Shown: one piece after another, positions 1 to 57,433 of the stretch | Layout: each line of letters begins with the position of its first letter | Numbering within the stretch: position 1 is the first letter of the stretch | Assembly (NCBI GenBank): GCA_946544115.1 | Contig: CAMNLW010000001.1 | Span: forward strand, 16,392 to 80,391 | DNA from: an uncultured Verrucomicrobiota bacterium | GTDB lineage: Bacteria; Verrucomicrobiota; Kiritimatiellia; RFP12; UBA1067 | Direction: 5' to 3' | DNA length: 64,000 bases | Translations under genes and position numbers: made by a program | Notes under the pieces: model-generated | Database searches by the model: none | The model's input: only the letters and a program-made list of their open reading frames with translations | Told to the model about the DNA's origin: nothing

Positions 1-446
1 ACGACTACAGCCAGGGGGCGAAGGCCGTCGCGTCGGGCATATATCCCGGGCGCCGGTACGGGGCGCTCAAGCGCGCCGACCGCACTCTCATGTTCGCCGA
101 GCTGCCGACGATCGATCCCGCGACGCGCAGGCGTCTCGACGAGCCGAGCGGCGCCGAGGCCGACTGCACGCTGCAGTACAAAGCGTCGATAAACGGCAAC
201 AGCTACAACTCGTCGTGGAACGGCAAGGCCGAGTCGGTAGGGTTCGTGCACAAGTCGGGCAAGCGCAACTATTGCGCCCATGTCGTCTTTGCCGACGCCC
301 ACACGGAAAAGCTTGTATATTCGGAAGCCGGGCTGAGCCTGCAGGACTTGACGGCAGCGCTCTGCGAGGGGCTTGACGTGGCCTTCGGCAAGCAAGGCTA
401 CCAGCTGGCGAAGGATGCGGACCAGATGGAGGCGAACGACGAATGA
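1..446 (+). CDS. 5'-truncated CDS: C-terminal part of a PVC-type prepilin-like (H-X9-DG-like) protein
   Basis: The frame of ORF 90..446 stays open back to the window edge (DYSQGAKAVASGIYPG...). The tail KRNYCAHVVFADAHTEKL resembles the (N)VLFADGHV tail of prepilin-type H-X9-DG proteins, but here it is DA rather than DG and there is no His at -10. The stop overlaps the next start (ATGA at 443-446). Confidence 0.45.
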   Translation, partial: DYSQGAKAVASGIYPGRRYGALKRADRTLMFAELPTIDPATRRRLDEPSGAEADCTLQYKASINGNSYNSSWNGKAESVGFVHKSGKRNYCAHVVFADAHTEKLVYSEAGLSLQDLTAALCEGLDVAFGKQGYQLAKDADQMEANDE

Positions 447-3400
447 AAGGGGGTTTGGGCATGAGACCGTTGCGTGAGACTTTCGCACTGTCGAAAAAGC
501 TTGCGGCGCTTGCGGCGCTGGCCGCGCTCGGTTTCGTCCCGGCGAGGGCCGACGTGCAGAGCCTTGTCGACGAGGGCAAGATAACGTGGACCGCGGCAGA
601 TGAAGACTGGATCGACGGGGAACTTGTACTTACGTTCAACGACCCGGACGAAGCCGGGACTCTTACATTGCCGGGGCTTACAAGGGCGAGGATACTTGCC
701 GTAGGCGGCGGCGGCGCGGGCGGCGCGGTCGGCACGACATCTAACTCCCGTGGCGCTGGCGGCGGCGGCGGCGGCGGCGGCTTCCTGGAAATCGGCCCGG
801 TCCTGCTTGAAGGCGGCGACTACGATATAACGGTCGGCAAGGGCGGTGATGCCGGTGAATTTATAACAGGCGCCAACATAATCGGCGGCGACGGCTATCC
901 CAGCAAGATTGAAAAAGATTCCGACCTCCTGGTATATGTCGGCGGCGGCGGCGGCGGCGGCGCGGAAAGCGACGGCAACCCCGGTTGCGCAGGCGACGCG
1001 ACCGCCACGCTCGGCACGGCGGGCGGTTCCGGCGGCGGCGGCTCGAAAATGTATGTTTCCAATACAGACTGGGCTAATCATGTCGGCGGCGAGGGCGTTG
1101 GCGGCGGTTATAAAGGCGGTGACGGTAGCGTCAGCAGGTCTGGCGGCGGCGGCGGCGGTGCCGGTGGCGACGGTACTGTAGCCGAGAAAGCAAACGTTGG
1201 AGCGGCCGGCGGCCCGGGCAGAACAAGCTATATCGCGAGCGATGACGGTATCGGCTACGCAGGCGGCGGCGGCAGCGGAACGCGTTCAGCCCTTAGCGCC
1301 AACGTCGGCAAAGGCAGTGATGGCGGCGGCAACGGCGGCGGCGGACAGAAAACCGCAGAAGACGGCGACCCTGGCACCGGCGGCGGCGGCGGCGGCGGTA
1401 CGCAGACCGCGGCGGGCGGCAACGGCGGCAGCGGCGTAGTGATAGTAAGGATTATCGAGTCCATTGACGGCGATCTCGACATTCCCGAGGGGAAGACGCT
1501 CCCCTACAACGGGGAGAACCAGATCGCCGTAAAGGACAGCTTCGCCTATCACTTCGAGGCCGGCAGCGTTACAAACGCCACGGATGTCGGGAATTATTCG
1601 TTTACCGTCACGCCGAACACCGGTTTTAAGTGGAGCGACGATACAGACCGCTCCGTCACCGTTGAATGGTCGATTGTCCAGGCATCGGTAGAGATTCCGA
1701 CGATTCCTGCCGGTCTTGTCTACGACGGCTCGGTGCAGACGGCGGCGGTGGCGACGGCGGCGTATACGCTCACGGGCGAGTCGTTCGCGACAGACGCGGG
1801 AACATACGATTTCACGGCGACGCTTGTAAGCGAGGAGAACTACAAGTGGGCCGATGGCACGACGGCGGCCAAGAGCTTTACATGGACTATCGCCCGGCTT
1901 GAAGTGGAAAAGCCTGCGGGTGTTTCCGGCGTGGAGTATGGCGGCACAAACGTCGCGGCTTACGCCGAAAGCGAATATTATTCGCTCGTAAGCGGTATTC
2001 ACAGCGCGACAAATGCCGGCAACTACGCCTACACGGTTGCGCTCAGCAACCCATCCGGCAAGACCAATCTCGTCTGGAAGGGCGAGTCGGGCGAGGCGGC
2101 GGCGGAACCGCTTACGATTGAATGGTCCATCGCGCCGGTGGCGGTTGACGTGCCCGCCGTGCCGACGGGGCTGGTATATACCGGCAATAACCAGGTTGCG
2201 TTCGAGTCGGGCGAGCACTATCATTTCACCGAAGCGAGCGTAACGAACGCGACGGGCGCCGGGTCGTACCCTTATGAAATAGTCCTCGACAATCCGGCAG
2301 ACGCTACGAACTACGTCTGGAAAGTTTCCCCGCCGTCGAGCGAAAACAGAAGCGGGAACTGGACGATAGCCAAGGCTGCGAACGAGTGCAGCGTAACGCT
2401 GGAGGGCTGGAAGATCGGCGAGACTCCCGAGACGCCTGTAGGAGAGGCAACCTGGGGGGCGGAATCGGCGACGTATACCTACGCCGCTTCGCCGACAGCC
2501 GCAGAGACCGAATGGACGGACGAAGTTCCGTCAACGGCCGGGCAGTGGTATGTAAAGATGACCGTCCCCGAGGCGGAGAACTGGCTCGGCGCCACGGCGA
2601 CGGCGAGTTTCGTGCTGTGGGAAAGCCCGGCGGACGTCTTTCGCAACAGCATAACATATATTGTGCGGGAATCGGGGGTTAAACCTACCGCATTCTGGCA
2701 GTCGGGCGAATTCGCCGATGATGCGGGCAAGCACGGCGGCTATGCGATAACGCTCAACACCGGCAACACAATAAACGACGCGGGCAACATCGTAATCGGC
2801 GACACCGCGACCAAGGGCGCTGGCATTTCCATCGCCTCGGCAGGAAAAACGAAGGCATCGATACTCGTAAAGTACAAGGCGCCCGCTGGCGGCGCCCCTG
2901 CCGCAAACTCTGTGCTGGCGGGTGTTGTCGCAACAGACAACCACCCGATCGGCGCATTCTGCCAGACGGCGGGCGGCACGTCAATGGAGGGCTATTGGTT
3001 AAACGGCACAACGGCGGCCACGGGGTATTCCTTCAAAACGCCGCCGCCAGCCGTGGAGGGCGGTTCAGGATATTTCCTCTTCTGCTACCACTCCGATGCA
3101 AGTAGCGCTGCCGTTACGGACGGAACGGCGTTTTATGCGGGCGATTCGATTGGGAATCTCGTTGGCGGGAATGTGGCCGGCCTGCAGTGGCGTGGCCACA
3201 CTATAAACGAGCTGTCGATCGGCGGGCCTGCATCCGGTGTGACCGTGCCGTGGAAGGGGCTGGAGATCGAGTCAGTTGCTTTGTTCGTCGATGCATGGCT
3301 TACCCCGGACGACATCACGATGAAGAACTTCCAGATACCGGTGAGGATTTCGGAGGACAAGTCCAAAGGTCTTGTCTACAGCGAGCTTGGCAAGGACGGC

Positions 3401-6400
3401 ACAAAGCTTGCATTTGTCGGCGAAGACGGGAGCCTCCTCGCCTATGATGTGGACACATGGAATGTCTCGGGCGAGTCGGTTGTCTGGGTGAACCTCCCGA
3501 CGGCTGCGGTCGGCACCAAGTTCACGATGTACTGGAACATCCGTGACGGACAGATCGCGCCCGGGCCGAAGCCCGAAAAGGTCTGGGCCGACTATGCAGG
3601 CGTCTGGCACTTCAACGAAACGATCACAAGCGCCACCGCCGCGTCAACCGCCTCCAAGGACTCCACTGGCAACGGGCTTGACGCTGTGCCGACACGCGGA
3701 ACAAACACAGGAGACCAACGTACACAGATGGCGAGCACAAGCGGTGTCTTCGGCAACGCCCGCGTCAACTCCACCGGTATGTATACGGGCGGCAACCGCC
3801 TGGTTGTTGACAACTCCGGCGATCTTGAACTTGGCTCGGTGTTTATGTTCTCTGGATGGGTAAAGGTCGGTGGTATAAATGGATCGAATATCATCGTGTC
3901 GCGAAAGGAAGGCTCCAATGACAACAATGGCTGGCAGCTGGGGCTCTGGGGTTCCACCGCCGCAGGCAGCCTTGCGGTCTGGGGGCCTGGCGGCAGCCCT
4001 GTACGGCCGGAGATCTCGTCAACCAGTCTGGCGTCGCTTGGTGATTATTTCTATGTTACTGTAGTATATAACGGCTCCAATCTGGTGGTTATGTACAATG
4101 ACAGTTACTACAACACATATTCGGGACGAACCGCTGTGGCGGATAACGGCCTGCCGCTTGCTTTCGGCGGCGGCTCGGGCAACGGCAGCCAACTGGTCTT
4201 TAACGGCTCGTATGATGAATTCCGAATCAGGAAGGGTCTTGTCGAGACCGACATGGCCAAACTTCGCGATCGCACCAGGGCCGAATATGCGGCGGCGACT
4301 AGCGACAGCTTCCTTTCGCGCGGGCTTGTGGAGCGCGACGGCAAACTTGTCAACTACTGGGTCCGCGAGCCCTCGATCACGCCTACAAACTGGGACGTCG
4401 GCGATAATCCGGCGGACGACGCGCTGGATGTCGGCGAACTCTTCGCAGGCACGGTAACCAACTGGATATACGAGGTGAACGCGCCGACGAACATTTACTC
4501 GAAGATTTCCGAGATTCCCGAGGACAGAACCGGCGTCTTCCGCGCGGTGAGCCGTCCTGTAGAGACCAACCTGTATGAAGATCTCGCCTTCGAGGTGACG
4601 TTCAGAATCAACGCCCACAGCCCCTACAGCAACATCCAGGGCAATGGCGGCGACTCTGGCCGCGTGCTCCTGATGAACAACGATGCAAACAAAGACTTTC
4701 CTATTGACTACCAGAACTGGTATGATGCCGATACCTGGGGCGCCAAGAAGTCAAATACGACAACTTTCTGGCAGATGCTTACAAGCGACGAGTTGACCGA
4801 CAGGACTTTCAATATGAAGGACGGCACAGAGTTCGTCCTCTGGACCGCCAACTACGGGAGCAGGCTTTGGCATCTAATAAACTGCCGTCACGGCAACACT
4901 TTCCCGTACAACAACGACTCGTCGGCGCTGGCGGATGACCAGAACTATCTGCCTTATTCCTCGACCTCTCGTCGTATCACTTCCCATAATGCATTGAACA
5001 TTCGTCGCCGTGACGTCGGTCAGATCGTTATGCGCAATATTGAGGACGCGGCGGTCTATTCGCAGTGCTTCACAAACGGAGTGGGGTCGATATACTTCGA
5101 CGCCGTGAACGGCTGGACGGCCGGCGCCGCCGAGACGGGCGATAACTACAAACTTGTGGTAGAGGTCGCCACAAACGCCCTCCTTTACGGCGAGAGCGTT
5201 CTCCCGACGGATGAAAACTCGTGGGACGAAACTGACGGCGTTACCAACTACTACGCCAACCTCGAAACCACGTGGCACAAAGCAAATGTGATCCCCTATC
5301 TTCGCGACGGAACGGACGACTTCACCCGTCTCGACGCCACGAACGAGCTCGCCCTCGCCGTGAAGAACGGCAAGACGATGAAGAACTTTTACCGCGTCGT
5401 TGTCCCGTTTACGGAGCTGGGCAACGAGGTTTATGCCAAGGCGAGCCACCTGCGCTTCAGGATTCGTCGTACTACGGCTACTGGCGAAAACGCCGATAAG
5501 TCGGGCATGATCCTTCTCGACAATATAATCGTCTCCTATCCGCCGATGAGGGCAGAGCTCGGGACGGCGGGCTTTTACGACGCGGGCGACGCCGCGAAGC
5601 GCGGCAAGACGATGATGGGCTACGAGCTTTCGACCTCCACGCCCTACCCTGCCGCCGGCGACGCGACGCTCAAGGGACGCGCCAAGGCGACGTACATCGT
5701 GAACGAGGGCAATCCGCTCGCCGACACCACCGCTTTCGTCGCGGCGGCGCAGATGTGGTACCGCTGGCGCTACCTCAATCAGCGCTTCGGCGACTGGAAG
5801 TATGTGGACCTCGACCCGATGACATTCGAGTCGGCCCAGACGCTCGACCTCCCGTCCGTCGCAGGCGATGTGGAATATTATTACACCGCCCAGCTGCAGG
5901 CGCCGTTTTACAAGTATGTCGACTACTCCGGCACGAATCTCGGCGTCCCCTACAGCGAAGAGGTGACGGATGTCACGAACAGGCTCGACTCGGCGACGAT
6001 TCTGCCGACTACGGGGACGGACTGGTTCTTCCGCCTAAGGAAGGGCGCGAGCGAATGGGAGGGCGTTTCGGTTGTCGCCCAGGGCGCGCTCACCAACGAA
6101 TACCCGATGGCGCTCATCGAGGATGACATGTGGCGCGCGCTTGTCGTGATCCCGACGAACGCCGAGGGGAACTGCACGTTCACGTTCAAGGGCGTGAACA
6201 AGCTCACTGGCTCGCCTTGGGAGATCAAGGAGAACGTCACGAACTGGGGCGTCGCCGACAGCGCCGACGCGTCGTTCACGCCGCCAGGCAACGGGCTTCT
6301 ACGCGAGGGGGGCGATCCGCTGTCGTTCGAGGTCGACCATATCTCCAACTATCTGGAGGTCAAGATAAGCACGCGCTACCTTACGTGGAGCGTAGCGAGG

Positions 6401-9400
6401 GCGGAGTATCAGGACTTCAACCACTGGAACGACGCCCACACCCCTGCGGAGAACCCGCAGTTCAAGGTCAACGTGCCCACGAACGGCGTCGACGACGTGA
6501 CGATGAAGACATATCCGCTTGCGGACGACATCAAGACATGGAGCGAATTCTCGTCGGGCAACAGCGATTGGGACGAAATATTTTATCTCTCGAACTACAA
6601 CGACCCCGGCTTCCCGAAGGAGGTCGTTTACCAGAGCCATGTAACCCCGGCGCGGTGGGACGGCTACAATCTCTCGTTCGTCTCGACGGAACTCACGAGC
6701 GGTTCTTCAGACGACCAGATGAAGAAGTCCGGCATGGGCGCGAAGCTCATCGGCCAGGGCAGGGGCTCGCTAACCTACACGAAGTCCAACTGCCCCGAGG
6801 GGCTTGAGAAGGTTTCGCTGAGGGCGAGGCTCGGCCAGTCGATGACGTTCGACGGCATAAGCTGGCATCCCGACGCCTGGGGGAAGAAGGACTACATGTT
6901 CTTCGTTCCCGCGACGATGAGCCGTAAATGCAGCAACGACTCGGCGCTCGGCGATATGGCGGTCGGCGCGGCGGTCTCGGTTGTCGGCTACTACAGGCCG
7001 TCGGCCGGCTGCTACGAGTTCAGGGCAGAGCGTCTTTACTCGGGGTCGAACATGAGGCTCTCGCTCTACAAGTGGTCTGTGAACAACGGCACCATGGAGC
7101 CTACGCTCCTTTGCGCGCAGGATTTCAAAGACACGCGCAAGATGTGGTCGAACGATTCCTCTGCCGCGGCCAACACCAAGCTTTATTACGGCATGTTCAT
7201 CTCGCTCGAGAACACGAGCTCGGGTACGCGCATCATCGGCGGCCTTTCGGTAAACGGCAAGGCCGTTGTCGACACGAACCCGGCCTCCAACTTCTCCGGC
7301 GACAGCGGCGGCTTCGGCGGCCTTGTCTACACCGACAGTTCCAATCCTCTCACGCGCGGTGCATACGGCGTGATGTCGAAGGACTGCCCGGCGGAGTTCA
7401 TGGCGCCTGTTTGCTACAAGACGGCGTTTACATCGGGCATCACGACAGGCGGCAACGCTTCGATGGGTCTCGGCGGCCAGTATTTCAACCCGTCCGCAAA
7501 CAAGCTCACGTTCGGCGGGTCCGCCACATTCGACGATCTAAGGGAGTCGCTAAGGGAGGACGAGTGGGAGCTTGTCGCCGGGCGCGCACAGTGCTACACG
7601 AACCTGCTCAACCAGGGCAGCGCCAACTACGCCTGGACGGGCATCCGCACCCCGACGGACATCAAGCAGACGGTCGAGCTGTGGCTGAAGTCGAAGACGG
7701 CTCCCGGCGCGAACTGGGTGAAATACGGCGAGAAGGAGGTTTCGAGCTATGGCTTCACGAGTTCGTTCGACCTGCCGCTCAACATAACCGGCACGTGGGA
7801 CATCAAGCTCACGACCGGCGGCTACAACGCCGATGTCGTCGTCGACGACGTGAAGCAGTACCAGTGGCAGGCGCCCGACCTCGACGGCCTCGAGGCCTAC
7901 AGCGGGCGGTTCATCTACACGCAGGGCGTCGTCGAGACCAACAAGACGCTCAAGGCGAGACAGCTCGTGCTGCAGCCTTCGCGCGGCGTCGCGACCAGGG
8001 CGATGTCGCTGAGATCGCCCATCCTCGGCGGTCTCGGGCGCGTGGCGTTCTCCTACGAGAACGTGGACGCGAACGCCGAGATCTGGGTCCAGGTCGCGAC
8101 GAACTCCGTGAACGGCGCGACGCTTTCGGGCGATGGGGGCTACAACAGGTCCGTCAAGTCCGTCGACCTCGCCGATATCGCCGCCGGGACCGCGACAGAA
8201 CCCGTCGGGACGTGGATAACGCTCGCGAAGTACACGGCGGCGGACCTCGGGACCTCGGGCTCGAAGCCGGTCTACCTCGGCTGGCACAACAACGAGGCCG
8301 ATTCCGTGCGCGGGGTCTTCCGTCTTTACGTGCCGACCAACGTCGTCTCGGCCGCGATCGTCGCCGCGACCAACGAGACGCAGAACACGGCCTACGGGCG
8401 CATCACCATAACCGGCATGACCGTCACCGACGAGCCCGCGCTGTCAGACAGGGCGTGGCGCGGCTGGAACATCCGCACCATCGGCGACGGCGCCGACACC
8501 GAGCGCCGCATGAACATCGACGACTCCTCGCTTCTCGGCGAGGACGGCACGGGCCTCGACTGCGGGCTCAACAATTCGACGGAAGACGTGGTGCCCGTCG
8601 ACGAGATCGTCAAGGTTGAATCGGGCAATCCCGCGATCTACTCGCCGACGTTCAAGTCCTACGGGCAGAAGCGCGGCGTAGGCGCTGTCACGTTCTCGGC
8701 CAGGCTCTACTCCACCAACAACACGCCCGTCACGGCCGGCGCCGGTCTCGTGACGCTCTACGGCTCGACCAGCTCCACAAGCGAGAGGTGGGAAAAGATA
8801 GCTGATTTCAAGATCGACAGCAGCGTCTTCGCCGACTATACGTGGACGGCGTCGAACCAGACCTACGCGGCGGTCAAGCTGGAGGTCCCGACGATCTCCG
8901 GCGAATACGACCGCGTGATTCTCGACGAGGTCACCGTGTCCGAAAAAGTCCAGCCGTCGCTGAGCTTCGTCTACGCGACGCCGTTCCGCCAGAACCTCAT
9001 GTCCAGCGAGCCGATCGCCGATATCGACAGCCCCAGCGAACAGCCGCTGGCGGGCGAGAGCTGGGGCGTGCAGGCCAAGCTGGCGCTCAGACAGCTCGCG
9101 GACGAGATCGACCTTGAAAAGGGCGTTACCGTGACGCTCGCCTACTACTCGGCCGATTCCTACGACGGCCGGCCGCCGGCGGTCTGGGGCTACGGCAACT
9201 GGGAGTCGATAGCCAAGGCGAACGGGAACTACGCGATCCCGCTCAAGCAGGTGGGCGACCCGGCGGACCTCGTATTCCGCTCGGTGGGCGACAGCCCCGA
9301 ATCGCTCGTCCAGCCGTCGTCGCGCGGCGGGGTTGTCGTGCAGTATCAGCTTACGGCCACGTTCTACGGGCGCGACGGCACGGAATACACGCAGACGGTC

Positions 9401-11242: not shown

Positions 11243-11258
11243 ACATGGGAGTGATTTT

Positions 11259-11267
11259 TGGTAAACT
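11259..11267 (+). promoter_or_regulatory. candidate extended -10 (TGgTAAACT) upstream of the lipoprotein gene
   Basis: Lies in the 61-nt gap after giant gene 1, 36 nt upstream of ATG 11304. Confidence 0.3.
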
Positions 11268-11303
11268 ACACAATGCTTGACTTGAAGAAAGAGCGATGAC
11301 AAG

Positions 11304-11783: not shown

Positions 11784-11794
11784 GGAACGAAGCC

Positions 11795-14700: not shown

Positions 14701-17700
14701 GATCGCCCGCCCGACCGAGGAGCAGGCGGCGATAACCAACACCACCGTCAAGGTATATTCGCCGTTCTCCGTCGACTACCAGATCGGTGAAGAGGTCCGC
14801 GCCGACCTCGACAGGGGTGTGAAGGCCGAGCTTATCGTCGACGGCGACACAATCGCCACCGAGGACGTGACCGACACTCGCAAGCACACTTTCGCCAACA
14901 AGGTCGAGTTCACTTCGGGCGGACTCCACACCGTGACCGTCGTCTTCACCGACAAGGACGGCAACAGCGGCGAGGACGGCGACTCCAGCGAGCCGCGCAC
15001 TATGCTCTATGACGTGCTCTCCACCAAGAACGTGATGGTTGCGGCGCACGGCCCCGGGGCCTCGCGCGTCTCGGCCAACGGCCACTCCGTTCGCTACGCC
15101 AAGGCCAAGGGTCTCGGCGCGGGCCGCGTCGACGGCGAGCAGAACCCGCAGAGCATCAAGTCGTGGGTCTCGACCTACGCGGTCTCGGCCTCCGAATCGG
15201 GGCTCAACATGACGGCTCGCGGCTACCAGGCCGCCGACCCGCTCAATGACACGATCGACGCTTTCGGCAACACGCGCGGCACCGCCGACAGCTTCTCCTA
15301 CACCAACAACGTCGGCGTGGGCATGATGGGTTACGACAGCTTCTTCTACGCGTGGACGTGCAACAACTCCAAGCCGTCCGACGGCATCGAGCTTGCGAGC
15401 GACCTTCTCATAGCCCCAGGTCTCGCGGGAGAGTATGAAATCCCGCTCCAGCCCTACGACAAGGAGAAGACCACCTACGACAACCAGTACTGGGAGGCGA
15501 TCTTCTCGCGCGAATGGCGCAAGACCGACAACCTCGGCGATATAAACGCCGACGGCGTGCCTGATATCTTCGTGGCGCTTTACGACTTCGGCGTGATCAA
15601 CCGCACGACCTCGACGGTTCTTGACGGTGACGACATCGCCCCGCTCAACGACTACAACGAGGACGGCGACTTCTACGGCGCGACCACCAACGCCGAGCAG
15701 AAGTTCACCGCGCGCATGGAGATTCGCGGTCTCCACGACGGCCTCAACTACGGCATGTTCCCCGTTACCGACACTGAAGGATGGATTTCCGAGCTGGAAC
15801 TCGGCCCCGCGGAAAAAGCCGCGCTCGACCGCTGCCTCGCGGCGAAGATCGAAGACGGTTCCTGGACCGGCACCAACGCGTTCGACCTCGCGACGGCGCA
15901 GGGCCAGGCCGATGCGAAAGCCTTCATAACCTGGACGTGGCGCGAATACGTCGAGGGCGACGCCTCCACATGGGGCTTCACCGTCGAGAACCGCACAGAT
16001 CCCACCAAGGAGGATACCGACGGCGACGGAATGCCCGACGGCTACGAGTACTACTGGTGGTACGCCGCAACGATCGGCAGCAAGGACGACGGCACAGGCC
16101 TCGCGACCGGCAAGGCGTTCAACCTCGCCGATCTCGACAACCCGACCGACATATCCCCGGCCGACATCGCCAGGATATACAACCCGAACGCCAGCATCGA
16201 CTGGACCAAGCAGGATACCGATAACGACGGCCTCACCGACTACGAGGAACGCGCCATCGGGACCAATCCCGTCAACTGGGACAGCGACGGCGACGGATTG
16301 AGCGACCTATACGAGGTCATGTGGTCCATCGACCCGCTCAAGAACCAGAACGGTGTCAACGGCGCCATGAACAACGATCAGGACTTCATGGCCTTCGCCG
16401 ACGTCGGGTCGTACACCATCTACAAGCTGGGCAACGGCTCGTGCTATGCGTTCAAGCTGCCGCCGACGGTCGAATCCGGCGAGGGCGGCACTAACACCGT
16501 GCGCGGCGCGTACCTCGCGGTTCTGCCATACAACGGCAAGTACATCCCCGCGACGGAGATGGTCACCGAGAGGCTGCTTGATGGCTCCTACGGCGAATTT
16601 ACATATGTCGACGGCGATGCGACGACAGTAACCTATGGCTCTGTCGCGCTTTACCACTACCAGGTCTACAACCGTTTCGGCTTCGATCCGCGCACCGGCT
16701 GGTGGAAGGATTCCGCCAACGGCACGGTCTCGCGCACGACGCGCTGGCTTGACGGCGGCAGCCCGCTGCAGGCCGGCACGCCGGTGAACACCATGCCGTT
16801 CACCGCGCGCGACGAATTCATGCTCCTCAAGTACCGTTATCTGCTCGGGTTGAGAAATCTTGCCGATGATCAACGCAAGCTCGCTGCCGAGGAGACGACC
16901 ATGGCGGCGATTCTCGCCGGCGGGTGCACCAACCCGAACGCCGTGAAGGACAGCTGGAGCTGGCCCTTCGGCGACAAGGCCGTCAGCTACCCGACGACCC
17001 ACGGCGCCGACACCGACGTCGACGGCGTGCCGGACGGCTGGGAGCTTTATGTAGGCGTCAACCCGAACGTTCCCTTCACGAGCAACAACGAGGGTCTCTA
17101 CAACGTGATTCGCGATACCGACAGAGAAGACGGCCTTGCCCTTCTCGCCGAGTACGCCGGAACCGACACATGCGGCAACTATGACGAGGGCGGCGCGAAC
17201 TGCCCGTCGATATACGCCAACCATCCGAGCGAGGCTTCGGGCTGCATGCCCGGCTGGTTCAACAAGTTCATGCCTACCGATCCGCGCGACGACGATACCG
17301 ACGGCGACGGCATCAAGGACGGACAGGAGGGCCAGAGCTGGAGCGGCATCTACACGATGAACCGCTGGGGCCAGCGCGTGAGCGAAGTCGCCGCGAGGAC
17401 GGTCAAGCACTTCTCGATCTACGGCAGCCCGACCAACGCCGTCTCGCGCTGCATCCAGGGCGGCGGCTACAACCCGTGCACGATCGATACCGATGGCGAC
17501 ATCCTGCCCGACCCGTGGGAGCGCCAGTACGCGGGTCTCCTCTTCCACGGCAACAACATCTCCACGGAGGGCGACTACAAGGTGTTCGGAGTCGCAGGCC
17601 CGCCTTCCTCGGAGTTCTTCGACGACATCCGCGCGGCGGTGACGGCCAACTTCACCACCAACACGTCCGGCTGGCGCGTCCTGATGGGCATGGACGGCAC

Positions 17701-20700
17701 TAAGGCCGACGCGACGGCCAACACGGTCATCGGCGACCCCGATATGGACTGGGACGGCGACGGTCTCCAGAACTGGCAGGAGTACATGGTCCAGGCGATG
17801 CGCCACCTGCGCTATGACGACAGCCGCACGCCTCTCATGGGTATGGACATGCCCGCCGTCGACTATGACGCCGGGACGATCGTGCCCGGCCAGTGGAACG
17901 GCCCCGGGGAGTATCTTAGGATAAGCTACACCGAGCCGCTCGTCGGCTCCCAGATCGACAAGGTCGCCGAGCTCGGCTACAAGAACTTTGCGAAGTATGT
18001 CGAGTCCAACCCCGACTACTTGAGGACCCTCGGCTACTTTGCCGAGCCCCCGAAAGAGTGGGATATCCAGCGTATCGACCGCGGCGAGCTCTACATGCTC
18101 CCGCCGACGGTCGAGCAGGATCGGGTGGCGACGATGGAATACCAGCACCAGAAGTTCGATGTTGATCTTGACGGTCTTCACCTTGTCTGGGATGAGGACG
18201 GTTCGGAATGGGTCGATCCTGTTCCGGTGGTGGATTTGGACACAATCCTCTCCGATGAAGATGCTCTAATCGACATCATTACAAATGCCTATGTGTACGG
18301 GACGGGCAGCGTTTCCAACAACGTCACCTCTACCGGAACTACCTGGTACTACCTTGAGGTCGATGACGAGGACGGCGAGGAATACGCCTACTATGTGACG
18401 CCAAAGTACGAAACGACGTCCCATACCATTAAATCCGTCAGAAAAACAAAGGCCACCGGCTACGTCGGCACCGACCCGCGCCTGTGGGATACCGACTTTG
18501 ACGGCATGGACGATTTCTACGAGCTCTACCACGGCTTGAACCCGCTTCTCGGAAGCATCGGCTCGCTTGCCACGGTTACGAATGCTGAACTCGGCACAAG
18601 CTACACGACGATCGTGGGCGCGCACGATGTAATCGGCAGCACTGTACCGAACGTCAGCGCCTGGCGCAATGCGTGGACAGGCTGGGAGAATACCGACACT
18701 CCGCCTTACGATCCCATCCGATTCCCGTGGATGATGGGCGTTGGCGACTGCGATGCCGACGGCGACGGCCTCAGAAACTATGAGGAAATGTTGCTCTCCG
18801 ACATCACCCAGCCCGGTGCTACCCACACCGACCCGACGCCGCTGTGGATGACCGACAACACCCACGATATCCGCTACGAGCCTGTCGTAACCGCGATCAG
18901 CATCACCAACTACCTCTATACGGCAGACGGCAAGCCGGTTTATGTCAAGGTAAACGGCGAGCGACAGCGCAAGATTCGCGATGTAACCGAGAGCGTGATC
19001 ACCAATTCCATGATTACGCTTGTAAAGGGACCGTCCTACACCCAGCTTTACTATCCGTGCGAGGTATGGCCGCTCATCTGGCTCAACGCGGGCTACAATT
19101 ACATGGCTTCGTTTGAAGTCAACGAGGGCTATGACAGCGATAACGATATGCGCGGCGACCGCCTTGAGCAGATCAAGACCGCCGAGCCTTCGAGCGATCC
19201 GCTGCACTTCGGCGACCCTTCGCGCCGCCAGAGCCTCTGGCTTGGCGGCCAGGACGACCCGGGTCTGGCGATTACCGTCATGCCGGCCGAGCGCGAAACC
19301 AACGGCAACGACCTCTTCAAGCAGTTCACGGTCGAAGCGTGGGCCAAGCCCGAGACGCTCGCCGCAGGCCACGACCAGTGCATCGTGAGCCGCTCCGTCC
19401 TCTACGGCGGCTGGGACATCGAGAACTCCAACACTGTCGTCCGCTGCAACTTCGCGCTCGGCATCGACGCCGACGGCTGCATATACGCCGGCTTTGACGA
19501 TTCTACCGATGGTTCGATTCGCGCCACAGGTTCTAAGCTTGACGACGGCGAGTGGACTCATCTTGCCGCCACCTACGACGGTGAAAAGATAACGCTTTAC
19601 GTGAACGGAATCCCCGTCAAGCGCGACGCAACGGCGAAGATTCCCGCGAACGGTCTCATATCGCTCATTCAGGATCCGCAGTATGATGGAGGCTTCCCCT
19701 ACATCAACTACCGCACCGAGCCCGGTGCTGTGGCTGTTGGCGGCCGTGCGACCGGCCCGGCGGCGTTCGCCTACAACCTTACAGCCAAGGCGACGTCGTG
19801 GAATGAGGTCGCGGACGACTTCTTCGGCGGCTGGGTCGACGAGGTTCGCGTGTGGGACGGCGCCCGCACCGATGCGCAGATTCTCGCCGAGTACAAGACG
19901 CGCTTTGACGCCGACAAGGCCAAGGAGCTGCGCGATGGCATCTATCAGGAATACCGTGAGCGCAGGACGCGCGCCGGAACTGCCGGTGCCGAGCAGATGT
20001 CGGCCGAACTGGTGATGCACTATGACTTCACGACCCTCGGCGGCGCGCCAGAGGCGACCAACGCCCAGCGCATACCGGGCGGCTTCGAGGCGCAGGTTCT
20101 CGACAAGGTTGTCAATCCTTCGACCGGCTCGGCAATCGACCAGTCTGCCATCGAGGTCGGCTGGTGGAGCAAGGTTCAGAACAACGAGGCGGTTGCTTCC
20201 AAGGTCTACACCTCCAAGCACTATGTGCCTTGGATAGAGAACACCGTAGCCCACCTGCCGCCGCTCAGCGGCAGGGTCATGGACAGCGTTTACTGGAACG
20301 AGAACTACGCCGGTTACACCCCGGCATCGTTCCACGGTATCGACTCCTACACCTTCCCGAACTCTATGACGCCTTACAACTGGACCGTCCAGCACGGCGA
20401 GGCGGATTATCTCTGGAAGAAGCTTCGCAAAATCGAGAGTGCCACCAACGAGACGGAGCGCGCCCACGGCGCCATAACCGAGGATTCGCCCTACAGGCGT
20501 CTCAGGTTCGACGTCCGCCACGAGTTCGACGAGGTGACCGACCTTGTCCCGCTCGGCAGCGCCTTCCCGAAGCGTATCTCCGAGGATGACGGCGGCAGCT
20601 GGGACGGCGAGGGCGCCGAGGACGCGTGGTCGATAACGACGCGCGAAGGTCTCGACGGCGACAAGAACGGAGACGGAATCCCCGACTGGTACGACGGTTC

Positions 20701-23638
20701 GACCGAGGACTACATCCGAGACCTCGCGGCCGGTCTCCTGCCCGACGGCTCGAAGCCGAACGATGAATGGGCCGATACGGCCGATCTCGACAATGACGGA
20801 CTTCCCGACTGGTGGGAGAAGCTCTACGACGTCTATGCCGACGGTGCCGACGACGACACAGACCGCGACGGTCTCTCCAACTATCAGGAGTATCTGATAC
20901 GCGAGGTTTACGGTCTTGAAAAGGTCGATCCCGGGCTCGCATACTCCACTGCGGGGCAGAAGGTCACCGACTACTATCTTCGCTACGGCACTCTCTATTA
21001 CGGAGAGCTCTTCGCCGACCACGACCATATCGAGGACTGGTTTGAGGACGAACAGCCCGTGGAGGCCGTCATCGGCGGCAAGCGTCTCGCCAACTACTCG
21101 CGCTTCACGTATGACGCGGCGCGCGATGTCGACGGCTCGGGCTGGAACAATTGGTTGCTTGCTCGCGCCTACATTGAAGGCATGTACACGAGCAACATAG
21201 TCACGGTTGTTACAAACTCCTCCGGCAGGGTTGTCGCGACGACCAATGAAGTGACGGGTTCCACCCTTGCCGACAGGAAGGGCAACCTCGACCCGGCGGT
21301 CGACATCCACGTGTTCTACAACGGCAAAATGGGCAACCTTGGATACGGCAGCACCGTGCATACCATCGCTGTCAAGGTGTGGGGGCTTGACGCGGACGGC
21401 AAGGCCGACCTCAGCCGCTCGCCCGACAAGGTCTGGGGTATGAAGGCCGAAAGCCAGAACGCCCTTGACATGGAGGGGCTTGCCCACGGTTACAGCGCCA
21501 CGCTCGGCAGCGTCCGCCCGGGACGCAGCCTGTTCGTGGCCTATGCCGTGGAGGGCGAGTACGATGATGGTACCGAGATTCCTCCGTACGAAGAAGGTAT
21601 GCCCTACGGCGTCGCCTACGCGACAATCGGCGCGAAGAGCGGCGAAGTCGTCGATATTGAACTGACGGACTTCAATCCTGCGATGATGCGTGTCAACCTC
21701 CCGGAGGCTATTGCGTTGCAGCGTGTCTACGCAGACAGCCTTGCCGCCAAGGACTCCGAGTGGTGGGGCAAGGCGATGACGGCCGGCAGCGCCGAGTGGA
21801 GGACGTACTATTCCGACATGAACGCGGCCTACGAGAGCATGGTCGGGACTGCCGACCGCGGCAAGGGTTCGTGCAGCTGGGCGACGATCCAGCGCGCCGT
21901 GGACTACTGCGGCACGAATCTCGTGTTTGCGTCGTCGAACATAGTCCACGTCTGGGTGGCGCAGCTTCTTCTCAACGGCGAGAAGAATTCCAACGGTCTC
22001 TATTACAAGCCCCTGTTCACCATGGGCGCGGTGGACCTTTCGAAGCACAATGTGCTCACCGAGGCCGATCTTGTGAATTATGGCTATCCCGACCTCGGCT
22101 GGGGTACGGTTGGATCGGCGTATCTTGAGGATCATCCCAACATCTCCTCTCTCACTAGCGCGACATTCGGCTTGATTCTCGAGCGTTCGCCGGTGACCTA
22201 TCCCAACGCCAACAACCTGCTCCTTGTCGAGATGGTGAACCATTACGAGAAGGGTCTGCGCCAGACGGCTATCGCCGACAGGCAGGTTCGCAACTACAGC
22301 GGCCAGCCGACGTTCAGCTGGACCCACGCGAACACGATAGGCAAGGACTACCCGGCCTTCCAGCTCAAGGTCTGGAAGAGTGGCACGGTGGTGTACGATT
22401 CCGGTGTGCAGCCCGCGCCCGTGCGCGACGCGTCCGGCCGCTACAACTGGACGGCGCCTATCTGGGTCGGCTCCATGCTGGCGAGCGGCACGGTGTTCGA
22501 AGGCAACGAGGAGTATGTCTGGGATGCGTCCATGCTTGACGCGAAGTTCACGTCGTTCGGCGGCTCCGCCGGCGCCGGCCAGAAGTTCACGATGCAGGAG
22601 AGCTCGCCGTCTGGCGGAGCAACCGACTATGGTGTGATTCCCGTAAAGGTGAAGTACACCGGCCCGGGCACGGTTTCCACAACTGCGGCCAAGCAGTGCC
22701 TGCGCGTCGAAGCCTATCTCTCCTCCGACTTCAGCGGCACGCCGGTCGGCGTGGGCTTTGTGACCGACGCGGGCGATCTAAAAGATGTAAAGAAGATCAG
22801 CGTCAACGCGCAGGTGACCGGGTTGCCGACATCGAACGAGTACTATCTGCTCGCCTATATCGACACCAACGGCAACGGTGTCCACGACGACTGGGAATCG
22901 TGGGGTTACGCCTGTTACTACATGGATCCGGATCGCGACGACATCTACACGCCGCGCGCCTACAAGCCGGGCAATGCGGCTGCCGTGGAAAACTGCCTGA
23001 TCTATGTCAACGATGCCGACACCAACGGCAACATGGTTCCCGACGTGTGGGAATGGGAGAAGGATGGCAGGCTTGGCGGCGCGACCGCCACCGGCGCGGC
23101 TTCGCTTTCGCCGTACTACTCCTACACGCTTGACGACGCGACGAAGAAGTCTGCCCTCTCGAAGCTCGGCTCCAAGTTCGGCGCTCCCGCGCTCATGAGC
23201 TCGCTTGCGTATGCGACGATGCTCTCGGCGATGCGCTCCGGCGAGCAGCTCACCGCCGAGCAGGCGTTCATCATCACCGGCATCGATGTGACGAAGGTGG
23301 AGGCGTCGCCCAAGGTGTCGATATCCTCGTTCTCGCTTGCGGACGGGATCACGCTGGCGGTCGATCCGTCGGCGACGGTCGACGGCGAGGAGGTTTCGTC
23401 GACCGCCCCGCTCACAATCAAGGTCTACGTGACGCTCTCCGTGCAGTATACTGACAATCTCGCCTCGGCGACATGGACCGAGGCGGCCAGGAAGACCATG
23501 CAGCTTACGCTTGCCTCCGGCGAGCGCAAGATCGGCGCGGACGAACTGACCGATGTCAACGACGCGCTGCGCGAAGCGGTCGCCGAGCATGGTTCCGGCT
23601 GCTACTTCCGCGTGGTGGTCGAAGTCGGTGAAAAGTGA
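11795..23638 (+). CDS. giant secreted Ca-binding adhesin-like protein (~3950 aa): Calx-beta/PKD-like modules, at least 13 TSP3-type DxDxDG repeats, LamG-like domain
   Basis: One uninterrupted ORF (track 11660..23638). I place the start at ATG 11795 (MKKSNLAFTLAVVIAALAAPFGARA, GAGGA 8 nt upstream); ATG 11780 is an alternative. Motifs seen:
- TSP3-like motifs DTDGDGMPDGYE, DTDNDGLTDYEE and DSDGDGLSDLYE at nt ~16010-16330, with more through ~23050.
- LamG-like FTVEAWAKPE..WTHLAATYDGEKITLYVNG..VDEVRVWDGARTDAQI at nt ~19325-19895.
- PKD-like WRFDDGSPD. Confidence 0.9.
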   Translation: MKKSNLAFTLAVVIAALAAPFGARANIASIESVADSSTSVAAYPNMNSPLVAGQTLYVRLRMLNKGWRPNISDGTGWKWDSEAFTESTGPALGLAVGGKRVWAPYATTTPGLVANGAVNGPVTDLYFAYKVQPGDIGKTVCLLRTDYKTSDSSSGDFLIRGVNDGTSKFTLVSDDSDATAAEFKYVDQATQSILSTFITVITSTREIKERVYVQAVDFDSPKYTDAWRYVDQGAYEPVDGLVPTINCSGAGENEALYVWSDDESVCVPIDIDLNPARTNVVDGKTVLTIPLSGSAETVRFYLKGGDAAVGSTTKIYMSPAVLGSYTEVGTSIEESAVATTVKLVNNPPTVSLYFNETSNDPLTVDCQTNYAKAAACTLTARLSKAVDHDVTVNLAADLAGSDLAALFNDDIIGLGSTYLKEDTSITIPAGHLFANLNLYALGWNDDTVESGINFTIAGIENDTGDVTVSDDSINLVISRLNPVITTERPTLDVYNKTEVPDEKFQVTVEDCYLAEKDWGAFTFDIIPDVNNPDNKLTGVPAVHKGGGVFSLKPTFVMTPGVTYDAQVTVRSPTGTSGSTTFSLIVKKAKTVYATASASSADEGGKITVSFSLSESYNANTWAFLVPTSENAEEFVNANGAPFTSGVLIEAGETDGSYTVDVEFADGENKPVTFEAVLSSEENTLTRVTAYSPSNLKPTVSVQNVAPKLTNATFNNKRVTGATVATVPRKATISMGLVAFDVDGDLDAVNTDTSLDGVYSDANRQFMAIWRFDDGSPDLVTYGNPAGQTVSREFTSDTEVSIYLKDKDQKLQTVLAGEPVKTFTVPVGDEPGVKIAFLSEYDTGVWNEDGEDDHSVLVSLNPAPAEDVTVQLTVPKGSNGGFLKFITDADVSLVSEDDAAIVYNVAIAANQSSPVRLDIDAMDGTSTTRALYITGVVTTDTPSGYGDKTWADYYKAGKSPKIQIKNIAPTIARPTEEQAAITNTTVKVYSPFSVDYQIGEEVRADLDRGVKAELIVDGDTIATEDVTDTRKHTFANKVEFTSGGLHTVTVVFTDKDGNSGEDGDSSEPRTMLYDVLSTKNVMVAAHGPGASRVSANGHSVRYAKAKGLGAGRVDGEQNPQSIKSWVSTYAVSASESGLNMTARGYQAADPLNDTIDAFGNTRGTADSFSYTNNVGVGMMGYDSFFYAWTCNNSKPSDGIELASDLLIAPGLAGEYEIPLQPYDKEKTTYDNQYWEAIFSREWRKTDNLGDINADGVPDIFVALYDFGVINRTTSTVLDGDDIAPLNDYNEDGDFYGATTNAEQKFTARMEIRGLHDGLNYGMFPVTDTEGWISELELGPAEKAALDRCLAAKIEDGSWTGTNAFDLATAQGQADAKAFITWTWREYVEGDASTWGFTVENRTDPTKEDTDGDGMPDGYEYYWWYAATIGSKDDGTGLATGKAFNLADLDNPTDISPADIARIYNPNASIDWTKQDTDNDGLTDYEERAIGTNPVNWDSDGDGLSDLYEVMWSIDPLKNQNGVNGAMNNDQDFMAFADVGSYTIYKLGNGSCYAFKLPPTVESGEGGTNTVRGAYLAVLPYNGKYIPATEMVTERLLDGSYGEFTYVDGDATTVTYGSVALYHYQVYNRFGFDPRTGWWKDSANGTVSRTTRWLDGGSPLQAGTPVNTMPFTARDEFMLLKYRYLLGLRNLADDQRKLAAEETTMAAILAGGCTNPNAVKDSWSWPFGDKAVSYPTTHGADTDVDGVPDGWELYVGVNPNVPFTSNNEGLYNVIRDTDREDGLALLAEYAGTDTCGNYDEGGANCPSIYANHPSEASGCMPGWFNKFMPTDPRDDDTDGDGIKDGQEGQSWSGIYTMNRWGQRVSEVAARTVKHFSIYGSPTNAVSRCIQGGGYNPCTIDTDGDILPDPWERQYAGLLFHGNNISTEGDYKVFGVAGPPSSEFFDDIRAAVTANFTTNTSGWRVLMGMDGTKADATANTVIGDPDMDWDGDGLQNWQEYMVQAMRHLRYDDSRTPLMGMDMPAVDYDAGTIVPGQWNGPGEYLRISYTEPLVGSQIDKVAELGYKNFAKYVESNPDYLRTLGYFAEPPKEWDIQRIDRGELYMLPPTVEQDRVATMEYQHQKFDVDLDGLHLVWDEDGSEWVDPVPVVDLDTILSDEDALIDIITNAYVYGTGSVSNNVTSTGTTWYYLEVDDEDGEEYAYYVTPKYETTSHTIKSVRKTKATGYVGTDPRLWDTDFDGMDDFYELYHGLNPLLGSIGSLATVTNAELGTSYTTIVGAHDVIGSTVPNVSAWRNAWTGWENTDTPPYDPIRFPWMMGVGDCDADGDGLRNYEEMLLSDITQPGATHTDPTPLWMTDNTHDIRYEPVVTAISITNYLYTADGKPVYVKVNGERQRKIRDVTESVITNSMITLVKGPSYTQLYYPCEVWPLIWLNAGYNYMASFEVNEGYDSDNDMRGDRLEQIKTAEPSSDPLHFGDPSRRQSLWLGGQDDPGLAITVMPAERETNGNDLFKQFTVEAWAKPETLAAGHDQCIVSRSVLYGGWDIENSNTVVRCNFALGIDADGCIYAGFDDSTDGSIRATGSKLDDGEWTHLAATYDGEKITLYVNGIPVKRDATAKIPANGLISLIQDPQYDGGFPYINYRTEPGAVAVGGRATGPAAFAYNLTAKATSWNEVADDFFGGWVDEVRVWDGARTDAQILAEYKTRFDADKAKELRDGIYQEYRERRTRAGTAGAEQMSAELVMHYDFTTLGGAPEATNAQRIPGGFEAQVLDKVVNPSTGSAIDQSAIEVGWWSKVQNNEAVASKVYTSKHYVPWIENTVAHLPPLSGRVMDSVYWNENYAGYTPASFHGIDSYTFPNSMTPYNWTVQHGEADYLWKKLRKIESATNETERAHGAITEDSPYRRLRFDVRHEFDEVTDLVPLGSAFPKRISEDDGGSWDGEGAEDAWSITTREGLDGDKNGDGIPDWYDGSTEDYIRDLAAGLLPDGSKPNDEWADTADLDNDGLPDWWEKLYDVYADGADDDTDRDGLSNYQEYLIREVYGLEKVDPGLAYSTAGQKVTDYYLRYGTLYYGELFADHDHIEDWFEDEQPVEAVIGGKRLANYSRFTYDAARDVDGSGWNNWLLARAYIEGMYTSNIVTVVTNSSGRVVATTNEVTGSTLADRKGNLDPAVDIHVFYNGKMGNLGYGSTVHTIAVKVWGLDADGKADLSRSPDKVWGMKAESQNALDMEGLAHGYSATLGSVRPGRSLFVAYAVEGEYDDGTEIPPYEEGMPYGVAYATIGAKSGEVVDIELTDFNPAMMRVNLPEAIALQRVYADSLAAKDSEWWGKAMTAGSAEWRTYYSDMNAAYESMVGTADRGKGSCSWATIQRAVDYCGTNLVFASSNIVHVWVAQLLLNGEKNSNGLYYKPLFTMGAVDLSKHNVLTEADLVNYGYPDLGWGTVGSAYLEDHPNISSLTSATFGLILERSPVTYPNANNLLLVEMVNHYEKGLRQTAIADRQVRNYSGQPTFSWTHANTIGKDYPAFQLKVWKSGTVVYDSGVQPAPVRDASGRYNWTAPIWVGSMLASGTVFEGNEEYVWDASMLDAKFTSFGGSAGAGQKFTMQESSPSGGATDYGVIPVKVKYTGPGTVSTTAAKQCLRVEAYLSSDFSGTPVGVGFVTDAGDLKDVKKISVNAQVTGLPTSNEYYLLAYIDTNGNGVHDDWESWGYACYYMDPDRDDIYTPRAYKPGNAAAVENCLIYVNDADTNGNMVPDVWEWEKDGRLGGATATGAASLSPYYSYTLDDATKKSALSKLGSKFGAPALMSSLAYATMLSAMRSGEQLTAEQAFIITGIDVTKVEASPKVSISSFSLADGITLAVDPSATVDGEEVSSTAPLTIKVYVTLSVQYTDNLASATWTEAARKTMQLTLASGERKIGADELTDVNDALREAVAEHGSGCYFRVVVEVGEK

Positions 23639-24803: not shown

Positions 24804-24828
24804 AGAACAAGCAGAAGGAATACGCCAA

Positions 24829-25866: not shown

Positions 25867-25873
25867 AGGAAAC

Positions 25874-26878: not shown

Positions 26879-26915
26879 AGCCTGTCAAATGGAACTTAAA
26901 GAAAGGAACGAAAAG

Positions 26916-27662: not shown

Positions 27663-27686
27663 ACCCAGCAACGCGGCTTCTATCTT

Positions 27687-31434: not shown

Positions 31435-31452
31435 CCAAAATTAGAGTATAAT
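31424..31452 (+). promoter_or_regulatory. near-consensus sigma70-type promoter for the secretin gene (TTGAAT-17 nt-TATAAT)
   Basis: The -35 element lies inside the last codons of the upstream gene. The -10 is 35 nt upstream of ATG 31488, with AAGGAG in between. Confidence 0.55.
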
Positions 31453-31487
31453 ACACTCAGACTTTGAACAAGGAGCATGAGATCGTT

Positions 31488-55353: not shown

Positions 55354-55355
55354 TC

Positions 55356-56599: not shown

Positions 56600-56612
56600 C
56601 GGAGGCGACTTG

Positions 56613-57431: not shown

Positions 57432-57433
57432 CG

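Follow-up and report, generated by a model that had tools for sequence, protein, structure and literature searches.

The first 23 kb of a 64,000-nucleotide (nt) stretch of DNA from an uncultured bacterium of the class Kiritimatiellia (Verrucomicrobiota), assigned to gut or rumen by the source names of homologues, carry, in order, the 3' end of a prepilin-like gene (prepilin X), a giant gene (giant 1), a small lipoprotein gene, and a second giant gene (giant 2). The whole stretch is referred to here as the window and corresponds to G000:C1:16392-80391 of a metagenome-assembled genome of 2.28 Mb in 161 contigs (G, C, and L number genomes, contigs, and loci; g and f number genera and families). 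A first-pass annotation of the window had treated these genes as one module, with the lipoprotein as a possible tether or chaperone and with the filament and secretin machinery of the same window as a speculative export route or assembly site for the giants. Comparison with related genomes divided the block into two pairs, X-giant 1 and lipoprotein-giant 2, and connected the first of these with filament genes.

The description of the block was borne out by the open reading frame (ORF) table and the junction sequences: the four genes are co-oriented and tightly packed, and the two giants, each with a Sec signal and separated by the small lipoprotein gene, occupy 22,644 of the 64,000 nt (35%). 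All genes from X through the secretin gene and the next gene, which encodes a Listeria-Bacteroides repeat, lie on the same strand with small gaps. The TGA of X overlaps the ATG of giant 1 (cgaATGAaag, 443-446), the two genes being translationally coupled, the lipoprotein stop at 11783 is followed by 11 nt and then by the ATG of giant 2, behind GAGGAA, and 37 nt separate the end of giant 2 from ackA; the tight junctions reported at 443 and at 11780-11795 were both present. Matches to the Pfam models Secretin, T2SSF, and N_methyl confirmed that a secretin and a pilin operon are encoded in the same window. The last gene of the pilin operon, of 1,040 amino acids (aa), had no PDB or Pfam match and is presumably GspK-like, a name that we have taken over. 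The giant ORFs are non-random, since frames of 3600-3950 codons cannot arise by chance and hundreds of full-length homologues were found. The features are listed in the table.

Table. Features of the window, with positions given in window coordinates.
Feature	Position	Strand	Remarks
Prepilin X, 3' end	1..446	+	Pilin-like gene, putatively of DUF1559/HX9DG type; stop overlaps giant 1 start
Giant 1, 3599 aa, Sec signal peptide	443..11242	+	Predicted cleavage ARA-D after residue 36
Giant 1, glycine-rich domain, residues 73-336	659..1450	+	PF21722 Gly_rich_2, E 7e-15
Giant 1, DUF2341-like and LamG (ConA-like) region, residues ~985-1262	3395..4228	+	Laminin_G_3, E 5e-10; weak DUF2341 match
Giant 1, conserved core, residues ~1470-3460	4850..10822	+	Common to all 1700-3100-aa homologues, family and class
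Giant 1, C-terminal tail	11120..11239	+	F-[FL]-[RK]-W-x-I ... V/I-x-x-x-x-L, then end; conserved family-wide
Intergenic gap, 61 nt	11243..11303	+	Probable promoter of lipoprotein-giant 2 unit
Helical lipoprotein, 159 aa, lipobox AFLG-C	11304..11783	+	Conserved partner of giant 2
Giant 2, 3947 aa from ATG 11795 (ORF 11660/11795-23638)	11795..23638	+	Sec signal ARA-N after residue 25
Giant 2, eleven dispersed TSP3-type calcium-binding motifs (DxDxDGxxDxxE), residues 1407-3701	16013..22897	+	Regular-expression count; Pfam TSP3_bac
Giant 2, LamG/ConA-like domain, residues 2508-2685	19316..19849	+	Laminin_G_3, E 1e-22; pappalysin-2 LamG in PDB
ackA, pta, kpsF-like SIS-CBS gene	23676..26878	+	Pfam; housekeeping, between giant 2 and PilM cluster
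PilM-secretin (Akkermansia MUL2-like) cluster	26889..34757	+	Pfam PilM_2, Secretin; PMC13174399
gspF, seven prepilin-type genes, and 1040-aa last gene	52885..62115	+	Pfam T2SSF, N_methyl

Gene order was compared among 101 species-representative genomes of the family to which the window belongs (f1), and the fetched loci were inspected; these genomes are related to one another and are not independent samples. The PilM cluster was detected in 96 of them, giant 2 in 89, and giant 1 in 78. Co-occurrence of the giants with the PilM cluster, which had been suggested as a check on the proposed module, discriminated neither way because the cluster is nearly universal in the family. Giant 1 and giant 2 were adjacent only in g1, g108, and one metagenomic locus (L002), and they were on different contigs in g2, g3, g5, g104, and g115, where giant 1 lay upstream of leuS. 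The lipoprotein gene directly preceded the giant 2 homologue in all genera inspected, including those with large genomes, and was recorded in this position in g1, g2, g3, g5, g104, g105, g108, and g120. In G218 and G202, the lipoprotein-giant 2 pair was located 363 kb and 200 kb, respectively, from pilM, and in G212 (g115) giant 2-ackA and the pilM cluster were on separate contigs. The order lipoprotein-giant 2-ackA-pta-kpsF-257-aa gene-pilM through to the secretin was detected in 35 genomes of g1, g2, g3, g5, and g104, where ackA-pta-kpsF keep their order, and was not present in the deep genera. The two giants had no domains or sequence similarity in common. These results indicated that the 23-kb block brings together, at the level of the genus, two gene pairs of older origin and is not one ancestral module. 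The location of giant 2 beside the secretin cluster is most simply explained by one rearrangement inherited by the small-genome gut clade; its position before ackA-pta-kpsF-pilM is no evidence of secretin dependence, for which support is weak.

The location of X was examined in 90 loci, which were fetched and classified (G234 was re-read individually). X was situated directly upstream of giant 1, or of a giant-1-like gene of 1900-3000 aa, in 42 loci from 20 genera, a class that included all deep genera and in which the usual order was proS <> X-giant 1-leuS. In a further 25 loci from five genera (g1, g3, g5, g104, and g108), X came immediately after the pilin operon, whose last gene is the GspK-like one. 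The remaining loci had X elsewhere (12 loci, four genera) or were cut by contig ends (11 loci, seven genera). The pairing of X and giant 1 was maintained over 20 genera at 25-40% protein identity, usually with X tens of nucleotides from the matched core. A maximum-likelihood tree of X placed the window and G234 copies, which are adjacent to giant 1, as sister to the gspK-adjacent copies of G273 and G279 with support of 100/98, and the well-supported branches of this tree force at least six changes of context. Exactly one X match per genome was detected in 88 of the 101 genomes, and X is unusual in this respect for a genome of the Planctomycetes-Verrucomicrobia-Chlamydiae group. Overall, these data indicated that a single pilin-like protein per genome has its place in one of two neighborhoods, whether by relocation or by duplication. 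In G285/L002 (g1), both neighborhoods are close together, with gspK-X being followed after 6 kb by giant 1-lipoprotein-giant 2. A different gene was observed behind X in the 12 loci with X elsewhere: in G277 and G085 (g3; L056:11451-12965 and L060:7004-8497), X is followed by a secreted protein of ~500 aa, maybe an alternative small partner, and in G206 (g109; L065, G206:C19:3701-8900) by an ORF of 840 aa, after which come three small ORFs whose N termini are hydrophobic and resemble those of membrane proteins.

A survey of 201 genomes of the class, with a basal giant-1-like protein as the query and with inspection of the loci, extended this linkage beyond the family. In f6, the order giant1-like -> gspF -> six pilins was found on one strand, with the giant directly upstream. 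In f23 and f45, the layout was tsp370<-h336<-pilM<-h257<-X / secreted gene -> giant1-like / convergent <-gspK-like<-pilins, and f46 had this same layout with no X homologue detected there. An X -> giant1-like arrangement was present in f3. Giant 1 was encoded next to filament genes as the partner of X, in the 42 loci, and its homologues beside a gspK-like/pilin operon or gspF in f6, f23, f45, and f46. Giant-2-like genes were detected in 39 of the 201 genomes; in f3, f23, f45 (G109), and f46 they were on other contigs than the filament locus. Inheritance alone does not readily explain varied arrangements that all bring the giant 1 family up against genes of the filament.

The complete X gene extends upstream of the window (C1:15764-16837; the likelier start is M28 at C1:15845). 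It encodes an N-terminal class III signal in which a short basic leader ending in HLHRG is followed by FTLVELLVVIGIIATLAGI; the canonical cleavage/methylation motif is GFTLVE. The motif RGFTLVELLVV matched Pfam N_methyl (E 2e-6) and TIGR02532 (E 6e-6), and a PDB search indicated that the N terminus resembles pilin alpha1 helices. Neither PF07596 nor the H-X9-DG model of NCBIfam matched X itself; at its tail, HVVFADAHTE, a DA replaces the DG of the H-x9-DG motif. Several homologues with 70-75% identity to X carry PF07596, and one of these is named 'H-X9-DG protein' by JGI. A promoter-like sequence, TTGCGC-17-TGGTATGAT, is situated directly before X.

The 843-nt stretch upstream of X (C1:14922-15763) consists of dispersed repeats, and a shared leader RNA at this site was therefore rejected. 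The repeats include a ~100-nt element with ~20 copies in the genome and a 210-nt repeat that forms an inverted pair, recurs beside tRNA-Pro (C1:11808-12104), and is found at many contig ends. They bracket a gene for an 864-aa secreted protein, and the region looks like a rearrangement hot spot. The bracketed gene (C1:12327-14921) belongs to an unannotated family of secreted proteins, termed up864, whose MBG-like repeats recall those at the N terminus of giant 1. Relatives of up864 adjoin giant 1 in several genomes of the gut clade (L013, L016, L031, L041, and L001), and in G245 the up864 relative is overlap-coupled to X.

Giant 1 was represented by 57 full-length homologues with 29-88% identity. 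Its signal peptide, in which n, h, and c regions were identified by reading, ends in LAALAALAALGFVPARA before the D of the predicted cleavage site. Pfam detected nothing in giant 1 beyond the glycine-rich domain and the LamG/DUF2341 region, and a PDB sequence search gave no match. Comparison with 17 relatives indicated that residues 1-1400 are a lineage-specific N-terminal extension, which is missing from basal homologues; in the latter, the core begins right after the signal peptide. AlphaFold2 predicted an all-beta chain both for residues 1440-2600 and for residues 2560-3599, with predicted local distance difference test (pLDDT) scores of 81 and 77.5, respectively. Foldseek matches of these models in the PDB were to reelin repeats, MAM domains, galactose-oxidase lectin domains, and carbohydrate-binding modules (CBM) 32, 29, 22, and 4, and included no enzyme fold and no beta-propeller. 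The core is thus modeled as a chain of jelly-roll/lectin/CBM-like beta-sandwich domains. An alignment of the deepest to the closest relatives detected conservation of the final ~25 aa, with near-invariant columns, and this tail is a candidate docking strand by analogy with PilY1/PilC (PMC13533445). An N-terminal export signal of the TcpF type was also considered. The conserved R-I/V-L-L-M-N-N-D strand is terminal in basal forms and internal, at approximately residue 1470, in the giant 1 of the window, and so it is unlikely to act as a terminal signal; a C-terminal export signal is the likelier one for giant 1. A lone giant 1 homologue of 3684 aa (39% identity) was observed near dnaA/dnaN/mnmG in L001 (an ERZ27280421 contig), where it is flanked on both sides by AAA_14/DUF4143 genes, the kind of gene with which the contig of the window starts.

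The lipoprotein had no Pfam or NCBIfam matches. A cysteine aligned with that of its lipobox in 12 of 13 orthologues, and the conserved motifs of the lipoprotein, to which an ORF of 206 aa without the lipobox cysteine is related in g115, were R-x-DP-x-Y, ARAxLPxGATDE, KYPEWK, and VRxRIxKE. A possible promoter had been reported in the 61-nt gap upstream of this gene. Inspection by eye gave TTGAAC-17-(TGG)TAAACT, also read as TTGAAC-17-TGGTAAACT, a weak match at 8 of 12 consensus positions; consensus promoter and terminator scans gave counts equal to the shuffled expectation and flagged nothing in the intergenic gaps, this one included. The pair would need its own promoter because it stands alone in other genomes, and the gap probably holds a retained promoter of the lipoprotein-giant 2 unit.

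The signal peptide of giant 2, MKKSNLAFTLAVVIAALAAPFGARA followed by N, was likewise divided into n, h, and c regions by reading. At least 468 homologues were found, ranging from 2500 to 6700 aa and named only 'LamG domain-containing', and the core common to deep relatives runs from approximately residue 1235 to the end. The LamG domain was the sole match in a PDB sequence search. An open frame of 9981 aa with several internally repeated LamG-containing modules was observed in G278:C112 (L033/L034), and the homologue in G245:C23 (L041) has 6659 aa. In g3 and g104, the gene upstream of lipoprotein-giant 2, where the window has giant 1, encodes a secreted protein of 1000-1180 aa (L015:5777-9139, L017, and L003), and a peptidase domain of the C10 (SpeB-like) type was present in the G095 copy (L015). 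In G218 (L026:3673-8673), giant 2 is followed by the gene for an M4 peptidase of the thermolysin type with 1666 aa.

The genes for export were then surveyed in the surroundings and in the genome. The 16 kb of the contig upstream of the window encode an AAA_14/DUF4143 protein, an unknown secreted protein of 1064 aa, a LamG protein, a GH5-like protein, peptidase U32, tRNA-Pro, and the 864-aa secreted protein. The first-pass annotation had reported no features of type I, type V, or type IX secretion systems (T1SS, T5SS, and T9SS) in or beside the giants and had left it to be seen whether T1SS or other dedicated export genes lie just outside the window. Both points were settled in the same direction: Pfam scans gave no RTX, autotransporter, or T9SS-tail match in either giant, no T1SS or T5SS genes or other dedicated export genes were present in the 16 kb upstream, and no T1SS genes were found downstream. 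The genome as a whole contains four secretins, four matches to GspE/PilB-type ATPases, one prepilin peptidase (A24; PF01478 match at G000:C56, 58 bits), and two TolC-like loci, all of them off this contig except for the secretin of the window, and approximately 11 prepilin-type genes, seven of which are in the pilin operon. The PilM-secretin cluster comprises genes for a 257-aa protein, a PilM-like protein, a 336-aa protein, a 370-aa TSP3 protein, and a 1097-aa secretin, and is followed by rho, uvrA, and other housekeeping genes and then by the gspF operon.

These observations suggested a route by which giant 1 could reach the cell surface. Sec would bring giant 1 to the periplasm, where it would dock to X, probably through its conserved C-terminal tail and in the fashion in which PilY1/PilC binds a PilK-type minor pilin. 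X would join the tip or initiation complex of the filament encoded by the gspF/seven-pilin/GspK-like operon, and the growing filament would take giant 1 out through a secretin. Once outside, giant 1 may act as a long glycan- or particle-binding adhesin. The second unit would be a separate envelope or surface pair, in which the lipoprotein probably tethers or chaperones the calcium-binding giant 2. That giant 1 rides on or out through a type IV filament with X as its adaptor is argued by analogy, and we put the chances at about even, a judgment made jointly for the two-unit reading, including the filament mechanism for X and giant 1 and the separateness of the second unit. A generalization, in which DUF1559/HX9DG-type pilin-like proteins are cargo adaptors that each dock a specific Sec-exported protein on a shared filament tip, is offered tentatively and is rather doubtful. 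The first-pass proposal, in which the filament and secretin export or assemble the two giants alike, therefore divides: comparative genomics favors it for giant 1 and does not support it for the lipoprotein and giant 2, an independent pair that is conserved family-wide and in deep genera lies 200-360 kb from the PilM-secretin cluster.

The proposed route is similar to that of PilY1/PilC with PilI-J-K (FimU-PilVWX) of type IVa pili, where the genes of the minor pilins have beside them a gene for a large non-pilin protein that is exported by Sec. PilY1/PilC is proposed to be kept at the filament tip by a short strand at its C terminus, the last ~10 residues of which complete the sheet of a minor pilin of the PilK type (PMC13533445; also PMC7541494). 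Giant 1 resembles these proteins in its signal peptide, its dedicated pilin-like neighbor, its conserved C-terminal tail, and its linkage to an operon with a GspK-like gene. It differs in size (1700-3900 aa in the giant 1 family versus ~1000-1500 aa), in having lectin/CBM-like beta-sandwiches in place of a beta-propeller or vWA domain, and in its putative partner, a DUF1559/HX9DG-type pilin-like protein and not a recognizable PilK or PilX. Homology to PilY1 was ruled out on the fold, as no PF05567 match was detected by Pfam and the models contained beta-sandwiches only. Since giant 1 fails this fold test for membership, it is suggested that giant 1 may work like PilY1, not that it is a PilY1.

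TcpF, from the toxin-coregulated pilus (TCP) of Vibrio cholerae, and CofJ of the enterotoxigenic Escherichia coli (ETEC) pilus CFA/III bind a minor pilin at the tip and are exported by extension of the type IVb pilus (PMC10120004, PMC6048534, PMC9565799). As proposed for giant 1, they are Sec-dependent periplasmic proteins encoded with pilus genes. Unlike giant 1, they are ~35 kDa, an approximately ten-fold gap in size, and have a disordered N-terminal export signal, which attaches to a trimeric minor pilin and is removed by cleavage upon release, whereas a C-terminal signal is likelier in giant 1. Classical exoproteins of the type II secretion system (T2SS), including the lipoproteins PulA and SslE, enter by Sec, fold in the periplasm, and exit through the secretin by means of a pseudopilus with a GspK-I-J tip. 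A Sec signal, as in T2SS exoproteins, was read in both giants (ARA-D and ARA-N); known T2SS substrates, however, reach ~1500 aa, have no pilin-like gene dedicated to them as a partner, and in most cases are encoded outside the pseudopilin operon. The secretin cluster of the window resembles MUL2 of Akkermansia muciniphila (Amuc_1098-1102) in having the 257-aa protein, PilM, the 336-aa protein, the TSP3 protein, the secretin, and rho in the same order and of the same type of content. MUL2 has been implicated in mucin use and in attachment to particles (PMC13174399). In the literature examined, neither a giant partner nor an HX9DG-type pilin was tied to MUL2, and here the cluster is one of four secretin loci. 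The giants, and giant 2 especially, are also similar to the giant RTX adhesins of T1SS (LapA, SiiE, and MpIBP) in being multi-thousand-residue, calcium-binding, beads-on-a-string proteins. Those adhesins have no Sec signal, bear RTX repeats at the C terminus together with a T1SS signal, and are encoded beside ABC/MFP/TolC genes, none of which was found here. A T1SS adhesin was rejected for both giants, given their Sec signals, the absence of RTX matches and of nearby T1SS genes, and the location of the TolC-like genes on other contigs.

Other explanations of the locus have to be weighed against this two-unit reading. All four genes could form one T2SS-like or secretin cargo module, in which both giants are exoproteins driven by a pseudopilus and the lipoprotein is an outer membrane tether or pilotin-like helper. 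Such a module would account for the co-orientation of X through the secretin with gaps of no more than 61 nt, for the occurrence, in 35 genomes of five genera, of giant 2 on the strand of pilM and 4-10 kb upstream of it, for the continuation of the block through rho into gspF-pilins-gspK in G277, and for the TSP3 repeats shared by giant 2 and the protein in the PilP position. It is very unlikely, as the giants are adjacent in so few places (g1, g108, and L002) and are on separate contigs in five other genera, the lipoprotein-giant 2 pair is 200 kb (G202) or 363 kb (G218) from pilM or on a different contig from it (G212), housekeeping genes (ackA-pta-kpsF) intervene, and the giants are dissimilar in sequence. 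A pilotin of the PulS/OutS/AspS type was rejected in particular: the lipoprotein gene tracks giant 2 and not the secretin, even where the latter is 200-360 kb away. It is similarly improbable that no functional link exists at all and that the giants use another route, the locus being a product of inherited synteny and rearrangement noise in repeat-rich, streamlined gut genomes. Unrelated housekeeping genes (ackA, pta, rho, leuS, and proS) do occur in the region, the 843 nt of dispersed repeats upstream of X, which recur at many contig ends, mark a rearrangement hot spot, and the related genomes are not independent. Against this stand the persistence of X-giant 1 in 20 genera at 25-40% identity and at least four arrangements, in five other families, that put giant 1 homologues against filament genes; such repeated, differently arranged linkage is unexpected from inheritance alone.

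A third alternative keeps X and giant 1 as true partners and places them off the filament. X would be a pilin-shaped tether or chaperone anchored in the inner membrane, and giant 1 would reside in an enlarged periplasm or envelope of the PVC (Planctomycetes-Verrucomicrobia-Chlamydiae) type, for example by capturing glycans during 'selfish' uptake through a secretin-containing, MUL2-like machine. The conserved X-giant 1 operon is often away from pilus genes in f1, lectin/CBM-like folds build giant 1, and Verrucomicrobiota store glycans in the periplasm, with MUL2 being linked to mucin and particle use (PMC13174399). We nevertheless consider this alternative, together with its glycan-uptake example, unlikely, because in 25 loci X closes the pilin operon after the GspK-like gene, because four other families have the giant 1 homologue directly before gspF or in the space that separates the pilM cluster from the pilin operon, and because X has the GFTLVE cleavage/methylation motif in a genome that encodes a prepilin peptidase. 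Several observations also weigh against export of giant 1 on a filament. Giant 1 has no PilY1-type propeller or vWA domain (Pfam and Foldseek), and at 390 kDa it is ~3 times the size of any known tip-associated protein. DUF1559-type proteins are uncharacterized, with no role as a filament subunit demonstrated and a functional literature that is essentially nil, a point that also favors the off-filament alternative. The presence of four secretins and four GspE/PilB-type ATPases means that the export channel cannot be assigned. The basal f1 arrangement has X-giant 1 between the housekeeping genes proS and leuS, away from pilus genes, and 12 X loci adjoin neither giant 1 nor the pilin operon. In the gut clade, the basal branching of the X tree lacks resolution, and two copies of X are present in G259 and G205; duplication and reciprocal loss, not relocation, could lie behind part of the X pattern.

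A side observation was made on the housekeeping genes between giant 2 and the PilM cluster. The pta protein (24796-25866) was 83-90% identical across most genera of the gut clade (72% in G278), and the protein of the neighboring ackA (23676-24803) was 56-69% identical, a striking difference in rate for adjacent genes of one pathway.

What is new here is the split of the block into two units, the alternation of the single-copy X between giant 1 and the pilin operon, and the class-wide embedding of giant 1 homologues in the filament locus; for giant 2, the result was negative. With regard to annotation, the two giants are not one system, and the lipoprotein with its LamG/TSP3 giant constitutes a separate and widespread pair. 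If the proposed role of X and giant 1 is correct, Kiritimatiellia, which abound as glycan degraders in gut, rumen, and sediments, would employ a type IV filament to display or release a giant protein of lectin-like build, with a dedicated pilin-like adaptor. In size, giant 1 would far exceed every other filament-borne protein known, and the principle of PilY1 and TcpF/CofJ would reach cargo three to ten times larger. Furthermore, the DUF1559/HX9DG family would gain its first testable function, and the PilM-secretin cluster of the Akkermansia MUL2 type would be tied to a concrete partner protein.

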